From NCBI GenBank assembly GCA_022841375.1, contig JALHRQ010000013.1, positions 5,384 through 69,383 on the forward strand: 64,000 nucleotides of DNA, given 5' to 3'. Below, piece by piece: positions 7,609 to 32,720 of this stretch. The stretch's first letter is position 1; every line of letters starts with the position of its first letter. The stretch is from Burkholderiales bacterium (GTDB lineage Bacteria; Pseudomonadota; Gammaproteobacteria; Burkholderiales; SG8-41). The notes beneath the pieces are model-generated. The model worked only from the letters and a program-made list of their open reading frames with translations. It searched no databases and was not told where the DNA came from. Both the position numbers and the translations under genes were made by a program.

Positions 7609-9522
7609 ATGACAAGCATGAATTTTCCATTTTCTGCCATCGTCGGACAGGAGCAATTGAAAACCGCACTACTGCTATGCGCGGTTGATCCGACGCTGGG
7701 CGGCGTACTGATCCGCGGAGACAAGGGGACGGCCAAAAGCACCGCGGCGCGGGCGCTGACGGATATCCTGCCGATGATTGAGCTTATCGCCGGCTGTGCG
7801 TTCAACTGTGCACCCGGCGTACCCTGTGGACACTGCGAGATATGTAGCGAGGCGAGTGCGACGGCGCAGACTGCTACGGTTCCTTTTGTCACGCTGCCGC
7901 TCGGTGCGACCGAAGACCGTGTGCTCGGCACTCTTGATCTGGAGCGCGCGCTGCAGGGCGTCAAGCGCGCCTTTCAACCCGGCTTGCTGGCGGCAGCGCA
8001 CCGCGGCATTCTCTACATCGATGAAGTGAACCTGCTGCCCGATCACCTGGTGGATGTCCTGCTGGACGCGGCGGCGATGGGTATCAACTCGGTGCAGCGG
8101 GAAGGCTTGTCGATCACGCATCCGGCGCGCTTCACGTTGATCGGCACGATGAATCTTGAGGAGGGTGACCTGCGCCCACAACTGCTTGACCGCTTCGGCT
8201 TGATGGTCGAAGTTGCGGCGCCGCGAGATAAAGCATTACGCGCCGAGGTGGTGCGCCGGCGTATCGCTTTCGATGCCGGTCCGGCCGGCTACGCCATCAC
8301 GTGGGAACAACAGCAGGATGCGTTACGCGATCAGCTTGCCACCGCTCAGCGCTTGTTGCCGGAGGTGTTGCTGGACGACGCGTTGCTCGATTTGATTAGT
8401 CATCTGTGTTGCGAATTCGACGTTGCAAGCCTGCGTGCCGACATCGTGATGCACAAGGCATCACGCGCACTGGCGGCACTGGAGAGGCGTGAGCAGGTGA
8501 CGCCCGAAGACGTGCGCTGTGCGGCGGAACTGGTACTGCCGCACCGGCGGCGGCGCAAACCGTTCGAGCAGCCCGGCCTGGATCGCGAGCGCCTCGACGA
8601 ATTGATGCGGGAAGCCGCTCAGCAGCCAGAACAGCATGATGAATCCGGTGCTGCCTCACAGGAAGAGGGCGCAGAGAGTGCAAAGGGCGACGCTGAACAG
8701 GACGATAAGCAGCAGGTGTTTGCCGCCGCATCCACTGGTACCGTACGCCGGATCGTGGTGGATAACATCCCAGCCCGCAACACTGTGGGTCGGCGCAGCG
8801 ACGTACCGGATACTTCGCGCGGTCGCGTGGTGCGTGCAGCACCGCATGACAATCCGAGCAGCCTTGCTGTTGGCGCGACGCTGCGTAGCGCTGCATTGCG
8901 CAATCCAGCGGAATTCCACGTAACCAGAAGCGATCTGCACCAGCAAATTCGCGCGGGCAAAAGCGCTAACCTGATTCTTTTCGTGGTGGATGCCTCTGGC
9001 TCGATGGCAGCGCAGCGCCGTATGGAGGCGGTCAAGGGCGCGGTACTGGCGCTGCTAACCGATGCCTACCAACGGCGCGACGAAGTGGCAGTCATTTCCT
9101 TTCGCGGCGAATCGGCAGCACTGTTATTGGCACCCACCCGCAGCGTTGATCGCGCTGAGCAGGGGCTGCGCGAACTGCCTACTGGTGGTCGTACGCCATT
9201 GCCGCACGCGTTGCAGTTAGCATTGAAAACTCTGGAACAGGCGGATGCGAGCGCGCCGCCGCTGTTGATATTGCTGAGCGACGGCAAGGCGAATGTTGCG
9301 CTGAGCGATGGCGCCGACCCATGGCGCGAGACGCTGGCCTTGGCCGAACGGCTGGCCGGGCGCGGTGTGCCGGCATTGGTGCTCGATACCGAAAGCGGTC
9401 ATCTTCGTCTGGGGCGGGCTGGCCAACTGGCGCAGGCGCTGGGAGCCGAATGCCTAACGCTGGAGCAGTTATCGGCAGAGAGTTTGACGCTCACGATACG
9501 TGGGCGGTTGAAAACAACATGA
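7609..9522 (+). CDS. ChlI/ChlD-like fused AAA+/vWA chelatase subunit (putative cobaltochelatase partner of CobN)
   Basis: FPFSAIVGQ, GDKGTAKST (Walker A), YIDEVNLL, acidic linker, vWA DASGSM and TGGRTPL. Confidence 0.9.
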   Translation: MTSMNFPFSAIVGQEQLKTALLLCAVDPTLGGVLIRGDKGTAKSTAARALTDILPMIELIAGCAFNCAPGVPCGHCEICSEASATAQTATVPFVTLPLGATEDRVLGTLDLERALQGVKRAFQPGLLAAAHRGILYIDEVNLLPDHLVDVLLDAAAMGINSVQREGLSITHPARFTLIGTMNLEEGDLRPQLLDRFGLMVEVAAPRDKALRAEVVRRRIAFDAGPAGYAITWEQQQDALRDQLATAQRLLPEVLLDDALLDLISHLCCEFDVASLRADIVMHKASRALAALERREQVTPEDVRCAAELVLPHRRRRKPFEQPGLDRERLDELMREAAQQPEQHDESGAASQEEGAESAKGDAEQDDKQQVFAAASTGTVRRIVVDNIPARNTVGRRSDVPDTSRGRVVRAAPHDNPSSLAVGATLRSAALRNPAEFHVTRSDLHQQIRAGKSANLILFVVDASGSMAAQRRMEAVKGAVLALLTDAYQRRDEVAVISFRGESAALLLAPTRSVDRAEQGLRELPTGGRTPLPHALQLALKTLEQADASAPPLLILLSDGKANVALSDGADPWRETLALAERLAGRGVPALVLDTESGHLRLGRAGQLAQALGAECLTLEQLSAESLTLTIRGRLKTT

Positions 9523-19261: not shown

Positions 19262-20554
19262 GTGCAAACGCGACGTTGCCCAGCGCTATTCATCAGCGCG
19301 CCCGGCTCCAATCACGGCAAAACGACCGTCACTGCCGCGCTCGCCCGCTTCCATGCCGAGCAAGGCCGCAAGGTCAGGGTGTTCAAGACCGGGCCGGATT
19401 TTCTCGACCCGATGATACTCGAGCGCGCGTGCGGCCAGCCGGTGTACCAGCTTGACCTTTGGTTGGTGGGGGAAGCAGAATGCCGGCGCCTTGTCTACGA
19501 AGCAGCACAAGAAGCCGATCTGATTCTGATCGAAGGGGTGATGGGCTTGTTCGATGGTTGTCCCTGTAGTGCCGATCTCGCTCAAAAATTGGGGGTGCCG
19601 GTACTCGCAGTGATCAACACGACCGGCGTGGCGCAAACGCTTGGGGCAATCGCTTATGGACTTGCCCACTATCGTGCTGAACTGCCGTTCGCCGGTGTCC
19701 TGGCCAACTCGGTTGCCAGCGCCCGTCATGCCGAAATGATCGTGCAGGGCATGCCGCCGGGGATGCGTTATTTTGGCGGGCTGCCGCGTGCATCGCAATT
19801 CACTTTGCCGGAGCGGCATCTGGGCCTAGTTCAGGCGGCAGAGATTGTCGACCTTGAATCGCGCCTGTCGGCGGCCGCGGCGTCGATTGCGTCGACCGAC
19901 TTGGCCGCATTGCCGGCAGCAGTGGAATTCACCTGCGCCGCAGCAGAAGCGCTGCCGCAACTGCTGGCCGGGGCACGCGTCGGCATTGCACGTGATCCGG
20001 CGTTTTCGTTTATCTATCCGGCCAACCTGGATTTGTTGCGGGCGCTGGGCGCCGAGCTGGTTTTCTTTTCACCGCTGGCCGACCAAGCGCTGCCGGAGAT
20101 CGACAGTCTTTACCTGCCGGGCGGTTATCCGGAACTCCATCTCCAGCAATTGCAGGATAACGTGGCGCTGAAAGCCGCGCTGCAAAACCACTTTCGACAG
20201 GGAAAACCGATTTACGCGGAGTGCGGCGGCATGCTGTATCTGCTCGAATCGCTCACCGACAAAGCCGGAAAACGCGGCATGATGACGGGCATTTTCCCGG
20301 GACATGCCGTCATGCAGGCGCGCTTGCAAGGCCTCGGTTATCAATCGGCACCAATGCCGGGCGGTGTGTTGCACAGTCATGCCTTTCACCATTCGGTGAT
20401 CGACACGCCACTGATTCCGATCGCATCCGGCGAGCGTTTGTACAATACCTCGAAAGGAGAAAAAATTTTTCAATTGGAGCGACTGACAGCAAGTTACCTT
20501 CACTGTTATTTTCCTTCCAATCCAGGCGCGGCTGCCCGGCTGTTTCTGCCATGA
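19262..20554 (+). CDS. cobB: Cobyrinate a,c-diamide synthase (CobB/CbiA)
   Basis: GKTTVT, FKTGPDFLDP, EGVMGLFDG, LPERHLGL, GGYPEL and AECGGMLYL. Confidence 0.94.
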   Translation: MQTRRCPALFISAPGSNHGKTTVTAALARFHAEQGRKVRVFKTGPDFLDPMILERACGQPVYQLDLWLVGEAECRRLVYEAAQEADLILIEGVMGLFDGCPCSADLAQKLGVPVLAVINTTGVAQTLGAIAYGLAHYRAELPFAGVLANSVASARHAEMIVQGMPPGMRYFGGLPRASQFTLPERHLGLVQAAEIVDLESRLSAAAASIASTDLAALPAAVEFTCAAAEALPQLLAGARVGIARDPAFSFIYPANLDLLRALGAELVFFSPLADQALPEIDSLYLPGGYPELHLQQLQDNVALKAALQNHFRQGKPIYAECGGMLYLLESLTDKAGKRGMMTGIFPGHAVMQARLQGLGYQSAPMPGGVLHSHAFHHSVIDTPLIPIASGERLYNTSKGEKIFQLERLTASYLHCYFPSNPGAAARLFLP

Positions 20555-21216
20555 ACCGATTCAGCAACGAAGAGATCGCCGTGGTTTACAAGGTGATTGC
20601 CGAACGGCGGGACATCCGTCATTTTCTGCCGGATCTGATCGAGCCGGAGTTGCTGGTCCGGCTGTTGAACGCCGCGCATCTGGCCCCCAGCGTCGGCTTC
20701 ATGCAGCCGTGGCGGTTCATCCGGATTTCCGCCCCCAGCCTGCGTACAACAATTCACCAGATGGTCGAACAAGAGCGCATCAACACCGCTCATGCTTTGG
20801 GGGAGCGGGAAGACGAGTTCATGCGGCTGAAAGTGGAGGGTGTGCGCGAGTGCGGCGAATTATTGGTGGTGGCGTTGATGGATCGGCGCGAGGAGCATAT
20901 TTTCGGACGCCGCACGCTGCCGGAAATGGATCTCGCCTCGGTCGCTTGCGCGATTCAAAATATCTGGTTGGCGGCCCGCGCCGAAGGCATCGGCATGGGC
21001 TGGGTTTCGCTGTTCGATCCGGAGCAGCTGCGCCTGTTACTGGACATGCCCGCCGGCGCCAAGCCGATTGCGATACTGTGTCTTGGTCATGTGGAAGCCT
21101 TTTATCCGAAGCCGATGCTTGAACTGGAAGGCTGGGCTGCGCGCCAGAAGCTGCAAGACATGGTGTATGAGAATGCGTGGTGCAATCATGTCGAGATTAA
21201 TAGAGAACCTGAGTAA
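20551..21216 (+). CDS. bluB: 5,6-dimethylbenzimidazole synthase
   Basis: RRDIRHF, APSVGFMQPWRF, LKVEG, GRRTLPEMD and GMGWVS. Confidence 0.94.
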   Translation: MNRFSNEEIAVVYKVIAERRDIRHFLPDLIEPELLVRLLNAAHLAPSVGFMQPWRFIRISAPSLRTTIHQMVEQERINTAHALGEREDEFMRLKVEGVRECGELLVVALMDRREEHIFGRRTLPEMDLASVACAIQNIWLAARAEGIGMGWVSLFDPEQLRLLLDMPAGAKPIAILCLGHVEAFYPKPMLELEGWAARQKLQDMVYENAWCNHVEINREPE

Positions 21217-21258: not shown

Positions 21259-21834
21259 ATGCGCAACAATTTCACCCGCTGGTGTATCACTCTCACCGCG
21301 ATCACTTTCTGCAGTATTGCCGATGCACATCCGGGACATGGGAGTGGCGTCATAGCGGGTATGGCCCATCCCTTACTTGGTCCTGACCATTTACTCGCGA
21401 TGCTTGCGGTCGGTGTATGGGCGGCTCAGTTGGGAGGCCGTGCAAGGTGGCTGGTGCCTGCCAGTTTTGTAGCGATCATGGTGCTGGCCGGCAGCATCGC
21501 TACGACTGGTATCGTGCTGCCCGTGGTCGAAAGCGGTATTGCGACTTCCGTTCTGCTGCTCGGTTTGCTGATCGCTTTTTCGGTGACGGTGACGCCCGCT
21601 CTTGGTGCGGGTATCGTCGGTTTATTTGCGGTTTTCCATGGCTATGCCCACGGTACTGAAATGTCGCTATATGGCACGCCATGGCAGTATGGATTCGGCT
21701 TTGTTGTATCTACCGCCGTATTGCATGGCGTCGGTCTGTTGCTCGGCCGGAGCTTGCATCAACAGGGCTTGTGGCTGCGTGCGGCGGGCGCCTTGGTCGC
21801 TGGCAGCGGCGTCTGGATGATGATCGCAATTTAG
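21259..21834 (+). CDS. HupE/UreJ family Ni/Co transporter or chaperone
   Basis: Signal peptide ending ADAHPGH; HPLLGPDHLLAMLAVG, FHGYAHG.E and TAVLH. Confidence 0.9.
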   Translation: MRNNFTRWCITLTAITFCSIADAHPGHGSGVIAGMAHPLLGPDHLLAMLAVGVWAAQLGGRARWLVPASFVAIMVLAGSIATTGIVLPVVESGIATSVLLLGLLIAFSVTVTPALGAGIVGLFAVFHGYAHGTEMSLYGTPWQYGFGFVVSTAVLHGVGLLLGRSLHQQGLWLRAAGALVAGSGVWMMIAI

Positions 21835-25946: not shown

Positions 25947-26270
25947 AGTGGCTAGAATTTTCTTGAGGTTTGATTGAGTATTGCCAGATGGTCAGGTGAT
26001 GTGTGATGCACAACGGGTTCCAAAGAAAATAGACTACTCGGATTCGGATGCTCGCACGGTCTTTTTGATAATTGAGTTGAAGTTCTGTCTTCTTATTGGC
26101 CCAGATACTAAGGGGACGCGTCACAAACATTTGATTTAGCCAGGTTGTGGAGACAACCAGCGATAGATAACTTGCGCAGGCCCGGACACTGGGTTAGTCG
26201 AGCACACCACCGTTAACACGGTAATCCAGCTTGACCCGTTCCTAGTTCTCGGGGAGAATCATTCAATCGT

Positions 26271-26434
26271 TCGGTTCGACGAAACGGAACACGGTGTGAA
26301 TCCGTGGCGGGCCCGCCGCTGTATCCGGGGACGGACGCTGCAAGATCGCAAGATCGGCCACTGACGGGGATCCACCCCGGCGGGAAGGCGCAGCGCTCCG
26401 GCTGATCCGGTAGCCAGAAGACGTGTCGAACCGA
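26271..26434 (+). ncRNA. Second cobalamin riboswitch, upstream of the peptide/radical SAM pair
   Basis: P1 TCGGTTCGAC/GTCGAACCGA; AAACGGAACACGGTGTGAATCCGTG, CCCGCCGCTGT, GCCACTG...GGGAAGGC and B12 box TAGCCAGAAGAC. Confidence 0.88.
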
Positions 26435-26448
26435 TTCGGAGTCTAGGT

Positions 26449-26507
26449 AAGGGCTCCGGCTGACTGCGTGCGCAAGCGTGCAGTCAGCCGGAGCCCTTTT
26501 TGTTTTT
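26449..26507 (+). terminator. Intrinsic terminator (attenuator) of the riboswitch expression platform
   Basis: AAGGGCTCCGGCTGACTGC...GCAGTCAGCCGGAGCCCTT long stem followed by a T tract, between the aptamer and the first gene. Confidence 0.88.
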
Positions 26508-26527
26508 CTAGTCCAGAGGAGTAGATC

Positions 26528-26677
26528 ATGACGCAGACAGTGCAAACGCAACAACCGCCCCAAACCGCCGCCAACGCACAACCGGTCGCCCCGACCATCG
26601 CCGTGCGCAAGAGCTGCAACCCCGATGGCATTGGCCTCTCGCACTACGTGCTGATGGACAGGAAATCCGCCAAATGA
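26528..26677 (+). CDS. cbpA: 49-aa precursor peptide (CbpA-like), not in the ORF track: MTQTVQTQQPPQTAANAQPVAPTIAVRKSCNPDGIGLSHYVLMDRKSAK
   Basis: SD AGAGGAG before ATG 26528; TGA overlaps the radical SAM ATG (ATGA at 26674-26677); core IAVRKSC..DG.GLSHY.LMD resembles the CbpA family as I recall it. Confidence 0.82.
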   Translation: MTQTVQTQQPPQTAANAQPVAPTIAVRKSCNPDGIGLSHYVLMDRKSAK

Positions 26678-28098
26678 CGGCAGCAGTCCTGAAGCGGTCC
26701 GACGCCGGTCCAGCGCTTTTCCGCGTGGACATCGGCCACGATGTCTACGCGGCGGTCACCGACCCGAACACCGCCTTCTGGGCGCTGGTCGACAAGACGC
26801 GCATCGCGGAGGAACTGGCTGGCGGTCCGTTACTCGACGCCTACCGCGCCAAGGCCGACAGCTTCGCTCGCGAGTTGCACGCACTGCGGTTCGAGCTAAA
26901 GCCGTCCGGTGTCTACCTTAACCCGACGGAGCGCTGCAACCTCAACTGTACTTACTGTTACCTGCCGGATACCCAGCGCAGCGGCGGCAGCCACATGCCG
27001 CAAAAGATGCTCTTGGATTCGCTCCGGCGCCTGCGCAGCTACTTTCGGTCGGTCATGCCCGATGGGCGCAAGCCGCGCGCCATCTTCCACGGGGCCGAGC
27101 CGCTGATGAACAAGGCGGCGGTGTTCGTTGCTATTGACGAATTCGCCAACGATTTCGCCTTTGGCCTGCAGACAAACGGCACACTGCTCGACGACGCTGC
27201 GGTCGAATTCCTCACTGCGCGCAACGTCAGTATCGGCCTCTCGCTCGACGGCCCGGTGGCCGGCATCACCAACGCCACGCGCCGCACCTGGGGTGGCAAG
27301 AGCGTGCACAACAAGGTGCTGGCCGCGATGGACAGGCTCAAGGGCTACGGCTCGTGGAGTGTCATCACCACCTGCACTACGGAGAACCTGCCTTACCTGA
27401 CGAATATAGTCGAACTCTTCCACGAACGCGAAGTGCCGACCTGCATGCTCAATACGGTGCGCTGCACGCTGCCCGGCGCGCGTAGCGTCAAGCCGGCCGA
27501 CGGTGACATGGCCAAGGCTTTCTTCGCCGCCATAGACCGCACCCACTCGCTCTACCGCGAGACCGGGCGCAAGCTAATAGTCGCCAACTTCGCCAACATC
27601 CTGCTCGCCATTCTTGCCCCGACAGCGCGGCGGCTGATGTGCGACATCTCGCCCTGCGGCGGCGGCCGCGCCTTCTTCGCGCTGGCGGCGGACGGTAGTC
27701 TCTACCCGTGCAGCGAGTTCATCGGGTTGCCGCGCTTCAATGGCGGCAAGCTATTCGACGATAGCGTCGAGTGTGGAGTGGAAGCGGCGCTGGCCTCATC
27801 CGCCTTCCGCGCCGTCACTGAGCGCGACGCCGACCGCTTCTCACCCTGTGGTGAATGCGCCATCCGCCACTTCTGCGGCTCGCCATGCCCGGCCGAGGCG
27901 CACGAGATGAACGGCGGCATGGAGAAAGTCGGCGCCTTCTGCGATTTCTACAAGGAACAGGTGAGCTACGCCCTGCGCCTGATCGCTGACCGCAATGCCG
28001 ACAACTACCTGTGGGACGGCTGGGACGAGGCAACGGAAACGGTGTTCGATGTGGCCGCCTACCCGCCTGCTCACAGGCCAGAATCTCTTTGCCTTTGA
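26674..28098 (+). CDS. cbpB: Peptide-modifying radical SAM/SPASM enzyme (CbpB-like)
   Basis: CNLNCTYC; HGAEP, QTNGT and SLDGP; SPASM cysteines CDISPCGGG...YPCSEF...CGEC...CGSPCP...C; coupled to the upstream peptide. Confidence 0.85.
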   Translation: MTAAVLKRSDAGPALFRVDIGHDVYAAVTDPNTAFWALVDKTRIAEELAGGPLLDAYRAKADSFARELHALRFELKPSGVYLNPTERCNLNCTYCYLPDTQRSGGSHMPQKMLLDSLRRLRSYFRSVMPDGRKPRAIFHGAEPLMNKAAVFVAIDEFANDFAFGLQTNGTLLDDAAVEFLTARNVSIGLSLDGPVAGITNATRRTWGGKSVHNKVLAAMDRLKGYGSWSVITTCTTENLPYLTNIVELFHEREVPTCMLNTVRCTLPGARSVKPADGDMAKAFFAAIDRTHSLYRETGRKLIVANFANILLAILAPTARRLMCDISPCGGGRAFFALAADGSLYPCSEFIGLPRFNGGKLFDDSVECGVEAALASSAFRAVTERDADRFSPCGECAIRHFCGSPCPAEAHEMNGGMEKVGAFCDFYKEQVSYALRLIADRNADNYLWDGWDEATETVFDVAAYPPAHRPESLCL

Positions 28099-28151
28099 AG
28101 TAACCCCGGTCTGCAACCACGGTGAGATCTTTCTCTCCCATGGCAAGGCGC
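28061..28151 (-). mobile_element. Transposase fragment, IS1182-like
   Basis: Minus-strand AMGEKDLTVVADRGYFKGKEILACEQAG matches the DDE segment (ADRGY) typical of IS1182-family transposases; no full ORF. Confidence 0.6.
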
Positions 28152-28311
28152 AGGTTGAATGCGACATAGACGCGGTTGCGCATGAACTTTCTGTAACCCC
28201 CGATGTTGCCCATTTCGCCTGATTGGTCAAGTCGGCCGGGGGAATTTCACCCTCGGCCGACTCGACCAGTCGTATCGTTGGTTTGATCGTATGGAGTAGC
28301 ACGATACGGAA

Positions 28312-28440
28312 ATGACAAATGCATCTGACGATTCCAAAGCATTTTATAAATGGTTTCGTGATTCGGTCGTGTCGGAGCACACAGATCAACTTCGGCGCAT
28401 GGTTCGCTATTTAAAGGCGTGGGCAGCTATTGTATTTAAA
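28312..28440 (+). pseudogene. Fragment resembling a CD-NTase/SMODS (CBASS cyclase) internal segment
   Basis: SDDSKAFYKWF...QLRRMVRYLKAWAA resembles the SDPK..W / LR..VRYLKAW helices of cGAS/DncV-like enzymes; AT-rich; no catalytic N-terminus. Confidence 0.45.
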
Positions 28441-28553
28441 CTCGTTGAGTCAAATATTCTAGACTACACTTGCCAAAAATGTAGTGTGGGGGCATTTTTA
28501 GGGGCATCTAAGAAATTCTAATTCCTGAAAATATAGTTTTCACAAGTGGTTAT

Positions 28554-28582
28554 GAGGGAGATTCGAATCCCTCTCTCCGCCA
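28554..28582 (+). other. tRNA 3'-end copy (Ser-like), probable att site of an integrated element
   Basis: ...TTCGAATCCCTCTCTCCGCCA gives the T-loop and acceptor end with CCA; no 5' half upstream; preceded by two GGGGCAT direct repeats (28489-28495, 28501-28507). Confidence 0.7.
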
Positions 28583-28620
28583 AATACAAAACGGGGCCTT
28601 GTGCCCCGTTTTTGTATTTG
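28581..28620 (+). terminator. Bidirectional hairpin terminator after the tRNA fragment and after the MBL gene
   Basis: CAAATACAAAACGGGGC-CTTGT-GCCCCGTTTTTGTATTTG. Confidence 0.8.
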
Positions 28621-28676
28621 TGGTGAAGGGAGTAGAGAGAAGCCTCCGGTTCGACCAACGGCGTTAGCGTTTCTAC

Positions 28677-29738
28677 TTATTTCGCCGGCAGGCGGACGCT
28701 CACCAGATCCGTTCCAACGATGATGTTGCCGGCAAATCCCCCTTCCTGCGCTGACTTGCGGTAATCGGCTTCCGTCAGCGCGCCGCCCGGCAGCTTGTAA
28801 GGCCCTTGCTGCTTCGCGCCTAGCGGCGGGATCAGGTGGGTGAGCATCAGATGCTTTGCGCCGGCGCGTTTTGCCATGGCACCCAAATCGGCGGACGTGC
28901 TCTGGCGAAAATAAAAAGGCGGAGGCATGCCGCTGCCCTTGTCCGGTGCCATGACCGGATGAATCGCAGAATGCACAATCACATCGGCGCCCTTGGCGAG
29001 TTTTTCGACTTGATCCGAAGTCGAGGAAGTGCGTGGCGGTGCAAACACGTCGTTGCCGGCGTCACCGCCGATGACGACACTGCCCGCGGGAGTATCCACG
29101 CGATAGGAGGCATGACCCGGTATGTGCGTTGAGCGGATCGCGCTGACCTTGACGTCGCCGGACGACCAGACCTGCTGCGGCTCGTCTTTGGGTTCGAAGG
29201 CAATGGTATTGATTAACGCTGCCGGGCCACCTTCGGGACGTGTTTTGTCTTCCGAGTAGCGCTGGGCAATTTCGCCAGACTTGAGGTAGGCGTCGGCGAT
29301 ATGCGCCGCGAATTTCGAGCAACTGACGCCATAACCCTGCGGTGACGGCTGATCGGCGCTGCAGACCATGTCGAGCTTCGGGGCCTTGGCGCTGAAGTGC
29401 CAGCGTACCTGCACGAGGTCGGCAAAACCATCGGCGTGATCCGAATGCATGTGGGTAAAGAACACCGCATTGATCTGCGCCGGCGTCACACCGAGCTGCG
29501 ACAGTCGCATGCTGGTGCCGCGCCCCGCGTCGAACTGCAGCCTTACTGCGCCGCAATCATTGCTGTCGTCGCCGTAGCGCACCAGCGTTCCGGAACCGGC
29601 GAGTCCGTTAAAGACGGAAGGTCCGCCCTGGGTGCCTGTCAAAGTCACAATCAGGCAGGGTGCTGCCGCAACCGTCGATGCCGGTCCTGCCAGCCAGAAA
29701 ATCCCCACGAGCGACAGCGAAATCAATATTTTTTTCAT
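28677..29738 (-). CDS. Exported MBL-fold metallohydrolase (RNase Z/arylsulfatase-like)
   Basis: Signal peptide MKKILISLSLVG...AAAP with SD GGAGGAG; THMHSDH, DAGRG, GGDAG and LTHL. Confidence 0.85.
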   Translation of the reverse strand: MKKILISLSLVGIFWLAGPASTVAAAPCLIVTLTGTQGGPSVFNGLAGSGTLVRYGDDSNDCGAVRLQFDAGRGTSMRLSQLGVTPAQINAVFFTHMHSDHADGFADLVQVRWHFSAKAPKLDMVCSADQPSPQGYGVSCSKFAAHIADAYLKSGEIAQRYSEDKTRPEGGPAALINTIAFEPKDEPQQVWSSGDVKVSAIRSTHIPGHASYRVDTPAGSVVIGGDAGNDVFAPPRTSSTSDQVEKLAKGADVIVHSAIHPVMAPDKGSGMPPPFYFRQSTSADLGAMAKRAGAKHLMLTHLIPPLGAKQQGPYKLPGGALTEADYRKSAQEGGFAGNIIVGTDLVSVRLPAK

Positions 29739-31632: not shown

Positions 31633-32139
31633 TTATTTTTGCGAACGATCACCGGAAGAATTCTGCAGCGCCATTCGCAGCCGTCGCAGCTTCGCGACGT
31701 CGAGTTTGTCCGAATCGCGTGTGGTTTCCTTGCTCTTGATCAGCCCGTCCAGGCTCAGCGTTGAAACCTTGCCGCCATTGAAGTCATGGTGTTCGAGGAA
31801 TTTCCGGAACGCATTGAATTTCAGGTCGTTTGCGACAAACAGGATGTCGATCGCAATATCGCCTTCGACCGCTGTCGAATAGCCCTTGTCCAGGCTTTCG
31901 ATCGCCAATCCCTGAAGCGCTTCCTGATTAAATGGAAGTTCCATGAGCGCCGCCCGGAGTTTCCTGTTGTTGCCGCGGCTCAACGGCAGCAGCAGATCGA
32001 TGTCCTTGGTGGCTCTCGGGAAACCATGAAACATCATGGCGGTTCCGCCAATGACGGCGTATTTGACGCCGTGATCGTTCAGCGCTTTCGCGAGCGCGCC
32101 AAGATCATCCGGTGTCGGTAACCGCCGCTCCGTCGTCAA
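31633..32139 (-). CDS. Nucleotidyltransferase (polbeta-like, DUF6036/AbiEii-like)
   Basis: YAVIGGTAM..HGFPRATKDIDLL, IDIL and LIKSK..R..DKLD. Confidence 0.8.
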   Translation of the reverse strand: MTTERRLPTPDDLGALAKALNDHGVKYAVIGGTAMMFHGFPRATKDIDLLLPLSRGNNRKLRAALMELPFNQEALQGLAIESLDKGYSTAVEGDIAIDILFVANDLKFNAFRKFLEHHDFNGGKVSTLSLDGLIKSKETTRDSDKLDVAKLRRLRMALQNSSGDRSQK

Positions 32140-32720
32140 GCGTTTGCCCGCGCGTGTCGAAGCGCGCGCTCCAGTTCAAGGTCTTCGTCGCGCTGGTTTT
32201 TTTCGGCCATCGATTTGAAATACAAAATACCGGGGCGAGCCGATTCCGGTGACAGGATGCTGTTGGCGCGCGCCTGCAGCCGCCCAAAGCGGGCGGCGAG
32301 GGCGCGACCACGCCGCTTCGCCGGCATCTGCAGCAGCGCCAGCGCTGCGTTGAGTTCGCGCTGATCCTGGTCGCCGTAACGGAGGCGGGCTTCGGGCAAT
32401 TCTTTGTTGCTGGCCGTCGATGCGCCCGCCCCGATAAACAAGGCGGAGAGCGGGCCGAGCAGCGGGTTGCCGCGGGGCGCACGGAACGTCGGATGTGAAT
32501 CCCCCTCGACGCGCTCGCATAAACCGACCAGAGCCAGTCGCTTCAGCAACTTGGATGCATTGCCGGGATCCACCTGAGCGGTGCTCGCCAGACGGCGCAG
32601 CGGTAGTGCGCGGTCTGGCTGCTCGTACAGGGTTCGAAGGATGCGATAGCGCTCGTCGCTTCCGAAAACTTCCCGCAGGATGGCGTCGGCGTTTATTTTC
32701 ATGATGTTGATTATAGGCAT
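32136..32720 (-). CDS. Winged-helix DNA-binding protein with a short C-terminal helical domain (antitoxin-like)
   Basis: VFGS..RYRIL..LY..P...LRRLA....VDPGNASKLLKRL..VGL; 4-bp overlap with the nucleotidyltransferase. Confidence 0.65.
   Translation of the reverse strand: MPIINIMKINADAILREVFGSDERYRILRTLYEQPDRALPLRRLASTAQVDPGNASKLLKRLALVGLCERVEGDSHPTFRAPRGNPLLGPLSALFIGAGASTASNKELPEARLRYGDQDQRELNAALALLQMPAKRRGRALAARFGRLQARANSILSPESARPGILYFKSMAEKNQRDEDLELERALRHARANA

Follow-up and report, generated by a model that had tools for sequence, protein, structure and literature searches.

A cobalamin-riboswitch cassette of the CbpA/CbpB family, encoding a short peptide precursor and its probable radical SAM/SPASM maturase, in a Burkholderiales genome

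Several systems in which a radical S-adenosylmethionine (SAM) enzyme with a SPASM region acts on a genetically encoded substrate provide points of comparison for the locus described here. CteB, the thioether-forming maturase of the SCIFF peptide, is built from a domain resembling the recognition element (RRE) for RiPPs (peptides that are made on ribosomes and then modified post-translationally), a radical SAM barrel and a SPASM region, in that order, and its substrate peptide bears Cys. PapB-type maturases make ranthipeptides, which contain Cys-Asp/Glu thioethers, and the PapB motif is a short C-x3-D; anSME carries out Cys oxidation, and the sulfatase motif is C-x-P/A-x-R. In the PqqA/PqqE and MftA/MftC systems, a short precursor with a modified region that is invariant across distant phyla is likewise paired with a SPASM radical SAM enzyme. 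A further background is given by the cobalamin-riboswitch regulons, whose members (cob/cbi, btuB, cbtAB, metE and nrd genes) stand behind an RF00174 aptamer and a terminator platform, and regulation by such a riboswitch and terminator generally implies expression at low corrinoid. In a 64,000-nucleotide (nt) window of a Burkholderiales bacterium genome (contig JALHRQ010000013.1; all coordinates below are positions in this window), a cobalamin riboswitch and a terminator precede cbpA, a gene for a 49-residue modified-peptide precursor, and cbpB, a gene for a 474-residue radical SAM/SPASM peptide maturase. Together these elements probably constitute a self-contained cassette of approximately 1.8 kb, belonging to the NCBIfam-defined CbpA/CbpB family and operating by the mechanism proposed below.

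By searching the encoded peptide and enzyme with the NCBIfam hidden Markov models (HMMs), the CbpA/CbpB assignment, which an earlier reading made from the sequence only (the sequence-only reading) had already put forward, could be established. The peptide matches TIGR04164 (cobo_pep) with 56 bits against a cut-off of 35 (E 2e-15), residues 23-46 lying on model positions 1-24 of 25, and the enzyme matches TIGR04163 (rSAM_cobopep) with 711.1 bits against a cut-off of 375 (E 4e-214), residues 17-446 lying on model positions 3-428 of 428. With the RF00174 match given below, all three components of a B12-riboswitch-controlled peptide and radical SAM/SPASM pair are thus above their cut-offs. The window pair agrees with the NCBIfam pair in adjacency, gene order, conserved core and cysteines (48 CbpA and 66 CbpB homologues). 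Compared to other CbpA/CbpB loci, nothing essential differs in the window copy, which is set apart by some 14 C-terminal residues shared with no homologue and by an IS1182 remnant at its right edge. It is an ordinary member of a family that has been named for years, is defined by two sequence models only and appears uncharacterised in the literature searched.

The cobalamin riboswitch aptamer (26255-26444, forward strand, as are all elements of the cassette) covers the full RF00174 model, positions 1-189, with 80.8 bits in Rfam against a gathering score of 31.5 (E 2.7e-18). The expression platform (26451-26506), recovered by both the terminator scan and the fold, is an intrinsic terminator made of a 20-23 bp hairpin at 26451-26496 and then TTTTTGTTTT; hairpin and T-run sit 6 nt past the aptamer and 22 nt before the cbpA start codon. 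Folding of 26255-26540 gives -137.8 kcal/mol (z = -5.77; 0 of 200 shuffled sequences are as stable), and the resulting structure shows the aptamer together with the terminator hairpin. By eye, a candidate antiterminator can be drawn in which the beginning of the B12 box (CCGGUAGCC) pairs over 8 bp, interrupted by one bulge, with the terminator's 5' arm. Directly 5' of the riboswitch, a consensus scan finds a promoter-like site, TTGACC-17 nt spacer-GAGAAT (26231-26259), which at 9 of 12 matches is weak evidence. Downstream of the platform, a Shine-Dalgarno sequence GAGGAG is read at 26516-26521, 6 nt 5' of the ATG of cbpA (26528-26677), a site at which most betaproteobacterial loci have CGAGGAG-like motifs, and the cbpA stop codon TGA (26675-26677) overlaps the ATG (26674-26676) of cbpB (26674-28098) in the tetranucleotide ATGA. 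The sequence-only reading had named the riboswitch, the attenuator, the Shine-Dalgarno sequence, the 49-residue peptide with its leader and core, the overlap of stop and start codons, and the CxxxCxxC and SPASM cysteines of the enzyme, and each of these is confirmed; its start for the system, 26271, falls 16 nt inside the riboswitch.

CbpA consists of a variable part (residues 1-22) and a conserved unit (residues 23-46, TIAVRKSCNPDGIGLSHYVLMDRK). Across the family this unit is 22-24 residues long and reads xIAxR(K)xCxxxGxGLSHYxLxD. In 48 aligned sequences, all of which match TIGR04164, the residues R27, C30, G34, G36, L37, S38, H39, Y40 and L42 are invariant, and I24, A25, M43, D44 and K46 are nearly so; in a count of 81 units, position 44 is Asp in 77, Glu in 3 and Asn in 1. 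The residues before position 23 are unconserved, being rich in Gln, Thr, Pro and Ala in Betaproteobacteria, whereas Planctomycetota and Syntrophia have just some 10 residues there, rich in Lys. In 81 distinct core DNA sequences, variation occurs at 15 of 21 first, 8 of 21 second and all 21 of 21 third codon positions, and as many as six synonymous codons encode the invariant residues. This codon-position pattern indicates that CbpA is under protein-level selection, as is expected for a translated peptide. Three precursors contain two complete units each, in a Sedimenticola metagenome-assembled genome (MAG; locus L062, ~2234-2461), a Sedimenticola isolate (L072, ~7711-7950) and a Rickettsiales-labelled MAG (L076, ~7771-7953). 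Longer forms of CbpA were also considered: three proteins of 88-108 residues proved to be over-extended gene calls running through the terminator region, and no domain-bearing or fused CbpA was found among the longer proteins searched.

In CbpB, the radical SAM motif C88-x3-C92-x2-C95 (the CxxxCxxC of residues 88-95) and the seven cysteines of the SPASM region (residues 328-423), arranged as C328-x12-G-x4-C346, C392-x2-C395-x5-C401-x3-C405 and C423, are invariant in 66 homologues that are 58-85% identical. Pfam Radical_SAM is matched above its cut-off (57.6 bits), and Pfam SPASM is matched with 17.4 bits, below the cut-off of 21.5. In the AlphaFold model, which has a mean predicted local distance difference test score (pLDDT) of 86.1, three N-terminal strands followed by helices (residues 16-73) precede the barrel and the SPASM region, and this N-terminal module, as modelled, has the build of an RRE. 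The nearest solved structures, from sequence and fold searches, are CteB, anSME, ChlB, TigE and SuiB. The scores of CbpB against the models of PapB, DynA, anSME, YhhB, HxsB and QhpD all lie between 90 and 111 bits, far below each cut-off, and judged on these scores CbpB is a family of its own.

CteB (PDB 5WGG, 5WHY) is the best solved relative of CbpB, by sequence (E 3.8e-17) as well as by fold (E 6.8e-20, template modelling score (TM) 0.64-0.74), and the domain order of the two enzymes is the same. However, they are only 17-18% identical, and the 84.4 bits that CbpB reaches against TIGR03974 remain below the cut-off of 425, which shows that it is not a SCIFF maturase member. The substrates differ as well, with one Cys in CbpA against six in SCIFF, and recognition of CbpA appears, in the predicted complex described below, to take place inside the conserved unit, unlike SCIFF with its separate leader. 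The second-best solved relative, anSME (PDB 4K36-4K39; E 6e-16; TM to target 0.80-0.83; root-mean-square deviation 3.4-3.6), shares the full complement of SPASM cysteines with CbpB, but it has no RRE domain, and the 101.9 bits of CbpB against TIGR03942 lie below the cut-off of 349, so that CbpB is not a member of that family either. As regards the substrate, in 78 of 81 CbpA units Pro or Ala occupies the second position past the Cys, as in the sulfatase motif, whereas an invariant Gly is found where the sulfatase motif has Arg, and the substrate is a peptide of 35-60 residues, not a sulfatase.

Among the HMMs of other families, the highest score is obtained with the PapB-type ranthipeptide maturases (NF047865, 111.1 bits); this is below the cut-off of 340, so CbpB is not a member but may work alike. 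The likeness extends to the substrate in that the Cys of CbpA is invariant and is followed downstream by an Asp/Glu that is almost so. The spacing in CbpA is C-x13-D, however, in contrast to the short spacing of PapB substrates, and the Asp that stands three residues past the Cys in the window peptide is not conserved in the CbpA family. Glycyl-radical-type, His-Xaa-Ser and sulfatase motifs were considered as family assignments and rejected, since inspection by eye gave no match beyond C-x-P/A and the enzyme has the RRE and SPASM build.

To model the binding of the precursor, CbpB and CbpA were predicted as a complex with three 4Fe-4S clusters and SAM, in three runs and with three controls. 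The ipSAE interface score is 0.91 (0.91-0.92 over the runs) against 0.00 for the best control, at least 54% of the contacts are shared, and the pLDDT of the partner is at least 61. The mark applied is reached by 58 of 80 solved complexes and by 2 of 110 mismatched pairs, a calibration that is only rough here, with custom alignments used and ligands carried. In the model, the interface is formed by CbpA residues 18 and 20-44. Residues T23-A25 pair with the strand 35-40 in the N-terminal domain of CbpB; R27 and K28 lie against CbpB residues 314-318 and the C-terminal residues 454-458; and the remaining part of CbpA lines the barrel and the loop 328-330. Consequently, CbpB is quite likely to bind its precursor by the xIAxRK segment and not by the N-terminal "leader", the segment adding a strand to the RRE-like sheet while residues 30-44 would thread into the barrel by the auxiliary clusters. 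Recognition inside the unit would explain why the "leader" is variable, why whole units are duplicated and why TIGR04164 covers residues 23-46 only. Since one invariant unit of about 24 residues would hold the recognition element as well as the modified region, the unit is predicted to suffice as a minimal substrate in vitro.

The distribution of the cassette was followed in a scan of one genome per species, which returned at least 562 relatives of CbpB; the best 80 loci were examined. Their hosts belong to many betaproteobacterial genera, Planctomycetota, Syntrophia-type Deltaproteobacteria, Anaeromyxobacteraceae, Verrucomicrobia and Alphaproteobacteria, together with one Armatimonadia MAG. 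Conservation of the peptide next to homologous enzymes was one of the points on which the sequence-only reading had staked its interpretation, and a CbpA-type peptide is found directly 5' of cbpB in 78 of 78 assessable loci (L018 and L041 have no assessable upstream DNA). A profile search with nhmmer places a riboswitch directly 5' of cbpA in 69 of 75 assessable loci; as the profile was built from the window and 15 of the 69 loci, 54 of the detections are independent, and the match in L067, where the contig ends, is partial. Of 20 loci tested directly with Rfam, 17 are assessable and 16 of these have the riboswitch. Between riboswitch and cbpA, a terminator, defined as a hairpin with dG <= -12 followed by a T-run, is present in 60 of the 69 loci, and several of the 9 failures are due to a start codon chosen too far upstream. 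At the DNA level, the window aligns in one piece, from 26248 to ~28055 and with 80-84% identity, to loci of different betaproteobacterial genera, and this alignment begins with the riboswitch and extends exactly as far as cbpB does. Across phyla, riboswitch, terminator, peptide and enzyme are thus conserved as one unit.

Six loci are without their own riboswitch. Three of them (L043-L045) belong to a cob operon that has its riboswitch at the head, 3-6 kb upstream. L073 is likewise inside a cob operon, in which no riboswitch was found, and none was found for L082. In L016, a Methylotenera MAG, AT-rich, foreign-looking DNA (1300-1835) replaces the riboswitch and terminator up to the ribosome-binding site of cbpA, with cbpA and cbpB intact, and this locus looks like a natural "riboswitch-less" variant. 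With switch, terminator, peptide and enzyme inherited as a unit in at least 562 species genomes, B12 status is the one constant input to the system.

The distribution of the cassette is patchy. CbpB was not found in 24 congeners of the window's host nor in 16 other genomes of the order, and in a sample of 400 genomes of the class it was present in one, the window's own (0 of 399 other scored genomes, one genome being unscored); no second CbpA or CbpB was found in the window's genome. The cassette thus behaves as a rare, horizontally moving module. Three MAGs carry two cbpAB cassettes each, on different contigs (L037/L038, L045/L049 and L047/L057), and in the latter two MAGs the copies differ in core subtype, C-N-P-D-G against C-E/D-A-D-G. 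Such a split within one MAG suggests either non-redundant paralogues or mixed bins. In five Planctomycetota-type loci (L063, L065, L066, L068 and L071), a second cobalamin riboswitch is located on the minus strand, ~100-200 nt upstream of the cbpA riboswitch, and CobT, CobU and CobS genes are found within 6 kb; this is probably a divergent pair of B12-controlled units, the position of CobT, CobU and CobS 3' of the second riboswitch being assumed. A group II intron domain (RF02003, 94 bits) was seen at 3095-3233 of L045, just 5' of the riboswitch that heads the cob operon with cbpAB.

Another finding concerns the genes beside the pair. Open reading frames (ORFs) of at least 90 codons within 6 kb, and of at least 35 codons within 1.5 kb downstream, were clustered all against all, and this clustering revealed no conserved third gene (protease, exporter or tailoring enzyme) in the 80 loci. 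Besides cbpB and the antisense shadows of cbpB, the largest neighbour family occurs in at most 15 of the 80, and the recurrent families are CbiA (15 loci), CobT (13), BluB (11), CobO (10), CobU (8) and CobS (8), a BluB-like gene being the commonest directly 3' of cbpB (10 loci). Genes of the cob type are present within 6 kb in 32 of the 80 loci, and in that range lower-ligand and nucleotide-loop genes (BluB, CobT, CobU, CobS) are found at 22 loci, compared to 13 with ring genes. The two-gene layout is the normal state of the CbpA/CbpB family. Because no protease or exporter is conserved in the family, their absence beside the window cassette is a family trait and not a loss at an insertion sequence (IS) scar. 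The sequence-only reading had raised that possibility; of its suggestion, the scar stands in the form of a short IS1182-family remnant just downstream, whereas the lost genes do not, given that no third gene is conserved and that in 39 of the 75 loci assessable for it the next downstream gene is read from the other strand. In this respect the cassette also departs from the clusters of PQQ and mycofactocin, which carry several peptidases or tailoring enzymes; none is conserved beside cbpAB. To our knowledge, riboswitch control is not found in the PqqA/PqqE or MftA/MftC systems, and compared to other cobalamin-riboswitch regulons, the CbpA/CbpB cassette encodes a ribosomal peptide and its maturase instead of an enzyme or transporter of known role.

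Based on the results presented above, a sequence of events may be proposed. Adenosylcobalamin, when plentiful, very probably binds the aptamer, the terminator hairpin folds and transcription ends ahead of cbpA; under corrinoid shortage, read-through would give a bicistronic mRNA in which translation of cbpB is coupled to that of cbpA via the ATGA overlap. Once the precursor is bound by its xIAxRK segment, CbpB seems reasonably likely to introduce one radical-mediated modification centred on the single invariant Cys30. Among the possible forms of this modification, an intramolecular thioether (-2 Da) is favoured, with some reserve; the acceptor would be the near-invariant acidic residue 44/45, in a ranthipeptide-like manner, or a carbon in GLSHY, and the product would be a macrocycle displaying Ser-His-Tyr. 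More tentatively, since conservation extends to neither a protease nor an exporter and the unit is preceded by just some 10 residues in certain precursors, the whole peptide, or each unit of a two-unit precursor, may be the working product and act inside the cell. Its role may lie in the handling of scarce corrinoids, that is, in salvage, lower-ligand and nucleotide-loop assembly or trafficking, and probably not in ring synthesis or cobalt insertion.

The direction of this last step comes from a survey of hosts. It covered 40 genomes behind 40 of the 80 loci, namely 12 isolate-named loci and loci without a cob gene within 6 kb, a choice that may bias the survey towards non-producers. CbiF is above its cut-off in 22 of the 40 genomes, and CbiC in only 2 of the other 18, which leaves 16 genomes with neither, including the isolates Thauera aromatica LG356 (L055) and Sedimenticola hydrogenitrophicus (L072). 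CobS, in contrast, is present in 37 of the 40 genomes and in 13 of the 16 without CbiF and CbiC. A role in cobalt insertion or ring synthesis therefore fits poorly, and the handling of scarce corrinoid fits better: with CobS nearly always present and ring synthesis in only ~60%, the host profile points towards late or salvage steps, and the gene neighbourhoods, with lower-ligand or nucleotide-loop genes at more loci than ring genes, incline the same way. A bolder proposal, which we regard as doubtful, is that the product is a macrocyclic peptide induced by B12 starvation to which corrinoids bind, or by which they are escorted, the invariant His providing an axial ligand (a "corrinoid chaperone" or "corrinophore"), serving salvage and nucleotide-loop assembly in producers and non-producers alike.

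Several observations weigh against the mechanism and role proposed here. The complex score is the confidence of the model in its own prediction, and likeness to solved complexes of RiPP maturases with leaders may contribute to the pass. The case for Cys30 as the reactive site is drawn only from its conservation and from the relatives of the enzyme. Because CbpB scores similarly against several maturase models, homology does not single out thioether chemistry, and on that ground C-C, C-N or ether cross-links to His39/Tyr40, or Cys oxidation, are equally open. The altered tail of cbpB, together with the contacts of residues 453-461 to the peptide in the model, could mean that the activity of this copy is affected. 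As to the role, no cob gene is found within 6 kb in 48 of the 80 loci; CobS is widespread among bacteria, with 9 of 14 control genomes having it; the majority of the hosts are MAGs or draft genomes whose completeness is not stated, and assembly gaps could account for missing CbiF and CbiC; and the related loci are kin, not independent samples. The argument for a role in corrinoid handling is circumstantial.

Other explanations must be weighed against this background. The sequence-only reading had offered a Cys/His cobalt chelator or chaperone, or a precursor for a part of the cobamide. As a chaperone, the modified peptide would feed the chelatase. This proposal draws on the invariant Cys, His and Tyr and the near-invariant Asp of CbpA, on the position of the window cassette behind a cob operon with CbtA, CobN, CobW and HupE/UreJ, and on the frequent presence of cobalt uptake in B12-riboswitch regulons. 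It is weakened, however, by the 16 of 40 hosts without CbiF and CbiC, which have no apparent need for cobalt insertion and of which 13 keep CobS, and no cobalt transporter or chelatase is conserved as a neighbour; furthermore, a Cys30 tied up in a thioether could not serve as a thiolate ligand. Cobalt delivery or supply of a cobamide part is therefore improbable as the function of CbpA. The extreme conservation of the modified region from Betaproteobacteria to Planctomycetota, while the remainder drifts, is a pattern of cofactor precursors and not of antibiotics, and it brings to mind a precursor that is sacrificed to make a small-molecule cofactor, in the way PqqA yields PQQ and MftA yields mycofactocin; under B12 shortage the cofactor would here support a route independent of B12. 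Like PqqE and MftC, CbpB belongs to the SPASM enzymes, and PqqE itself appears at rank 49 of the fold list. Yet the conserved unit is 22-24 residues long instead of a two-residue motif, the whole of it is buried in the predicted interface, and the peptidase, oxidase or tailoring genes, several of which the PQQ and mycofactocin clusters contain, are not conserved nearby, which leaves little likelihood for a cofactor.

A product acting outside the cell was also considered, which might be antimicrobial, might signal B12 hunger or might, as a "corrinophore", scavenge corrinoids and re-enter through an outer-membrane receptor. Secreted natural products are what radical SAM maturases with an RRE typically make, the occurrence of the cassette is patchy and suggests horizontal mobility, its peptide has Lys-rich termini, and ATP-binding cassette (ABC) transporter genes lie upstream in some loci. 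These ABC genes, however, stand upstream of the riboswitch and in at most 14 related loci; signal peptide, leader protease, exporter and immunity gene are all without conservation; and a core invariant across phyla is unlike that of antimicrobial RiPPs, whose cores diversify, so that secretion seems a poor prospect. The remaining explanation concerns this genome only, in which the cassette might be a recently acquired and possibly impaired passenger, an IS-associated junction having replaced the native end of cbpB, so that the product may be missing here. DNA homology to other cassettes stops at ~28055, while the cbpB ORF runs on for about 14 unique codons (28057-28098) beside the IS1182 remnant (28061-28131, strand not assigned), which lies outside the system and marks its right boundary; over 71 nt the remnant is 80.3% identical to a Paraburkholderia plasmid gene that carries the annotation IS1182 family transposase. 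The homologous ORFs end near window residue 460, residues 461-474 have a pLDDT below 50, and a search of 24 congeners did not find the cassette. Against an impaired copy, both ORFs are intact, the residues invariant in the 66-sequence alignment are by definition all present in the window copy, the riboswitch, terminator, Shine-Dalgarno sequence and ATGA overlap are undamaged, and the altered tail starts after the last conserved and predicted-contact residues (453-461). A passenger without its product thus has only a slight chance of being the right description, and the reading we prefer for the window, as for the family, is a cassette probably induced at low corrinoid whose enzyme would modify a peptide that may stay in the cell.

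In full-text literature searches nothing was found on the CbpA/CbpB pair, although supplementary tables of surveys of radical SAM RiPPs, which such searches do not cover, might list the family; the available parts of PMC10288494, PMC9062424, PMC3531188 and PMC9600662 gave nothing on the pair either. The sequence-only reading, which did not know the product or function of the pair to be characterised, agrees with this, and the same searches gave no account of cobalamin-riboswitch control over a RiPP pair. Nor did the literature searched describe the riboswitch and terminator as near-universal here, recognition by an element inside the unit, precursors with two units, the lack of accessory genes, the host profile or the 1.8-kb boundaries. 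If the bolder proposal of a corrinoid chaperone is true, CbpA would be both the first riboswitch-controlled RiPP and the first factor of the B12 economy that is a ribosomal peptide, encoded in a 1.8-kb mobile module across at least five phyla, and a product acting on corrinoids would be a new kind of player in vitamin B12 metabolism and in the B12 exchange of microbial communities. Cultured, tractable carriers of the cassette exist in Aromatoleum, Dechloromonas agitata, Azospira oryzae and Propionivibrio.

As for the surroundings of the cassette in the window, the upstream region (1746-25946) is a single long cob operon of ~24 kb, which ends 300 nt before the cassette and is headed by a second, stronger cobalamin riboswitch (1746-1979, RF00174, 113.4 bits). 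Its genes encode CbtA, CobN, a ChlI/D-type chelatase subunit, CobA, CbiE, CbiX-CbiC, CbiD, CbiL, CbiF, CbiG, CbiH/J, CobW, CobO, CbiA, a BluB-like nitroreductase, HupE/UreJ, CobU, CbiB, an aminotransferase and CobQ. With its own promoter-like site and its own riboswitch, the cassette is thus a unit separate from this operon. The BluB-like gene of the nitroreductase family and the gene for the transporter of the HupE/UreJ family are located inside the operon at 20221-21216 and 21259-21834, respectively. On the other side, a 39-residue reading on the minus strand (28099-28215) has no second copy in the genome and no Pfam match, and a Pfam search with the small ORF 28312-28521 likewise gave no match. 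GC content drops to 0.47-0.51 at 28000-28750. Downstream of the IS remnant, genes for a protein of the metallo-beta-lactamase fold and for a GntR regulator lie on the opposite strand. Further 3' of the cassette, in a stretch of lower GC content on the minus strand (31633-32720), a small gene pair encodes an AbiEii-type nucleotidyltransferase domain (E 2e-5) and a MarR-type helix-turn-helix protein, and by its domains it looks like a type IV toxin-antitoxin pair.

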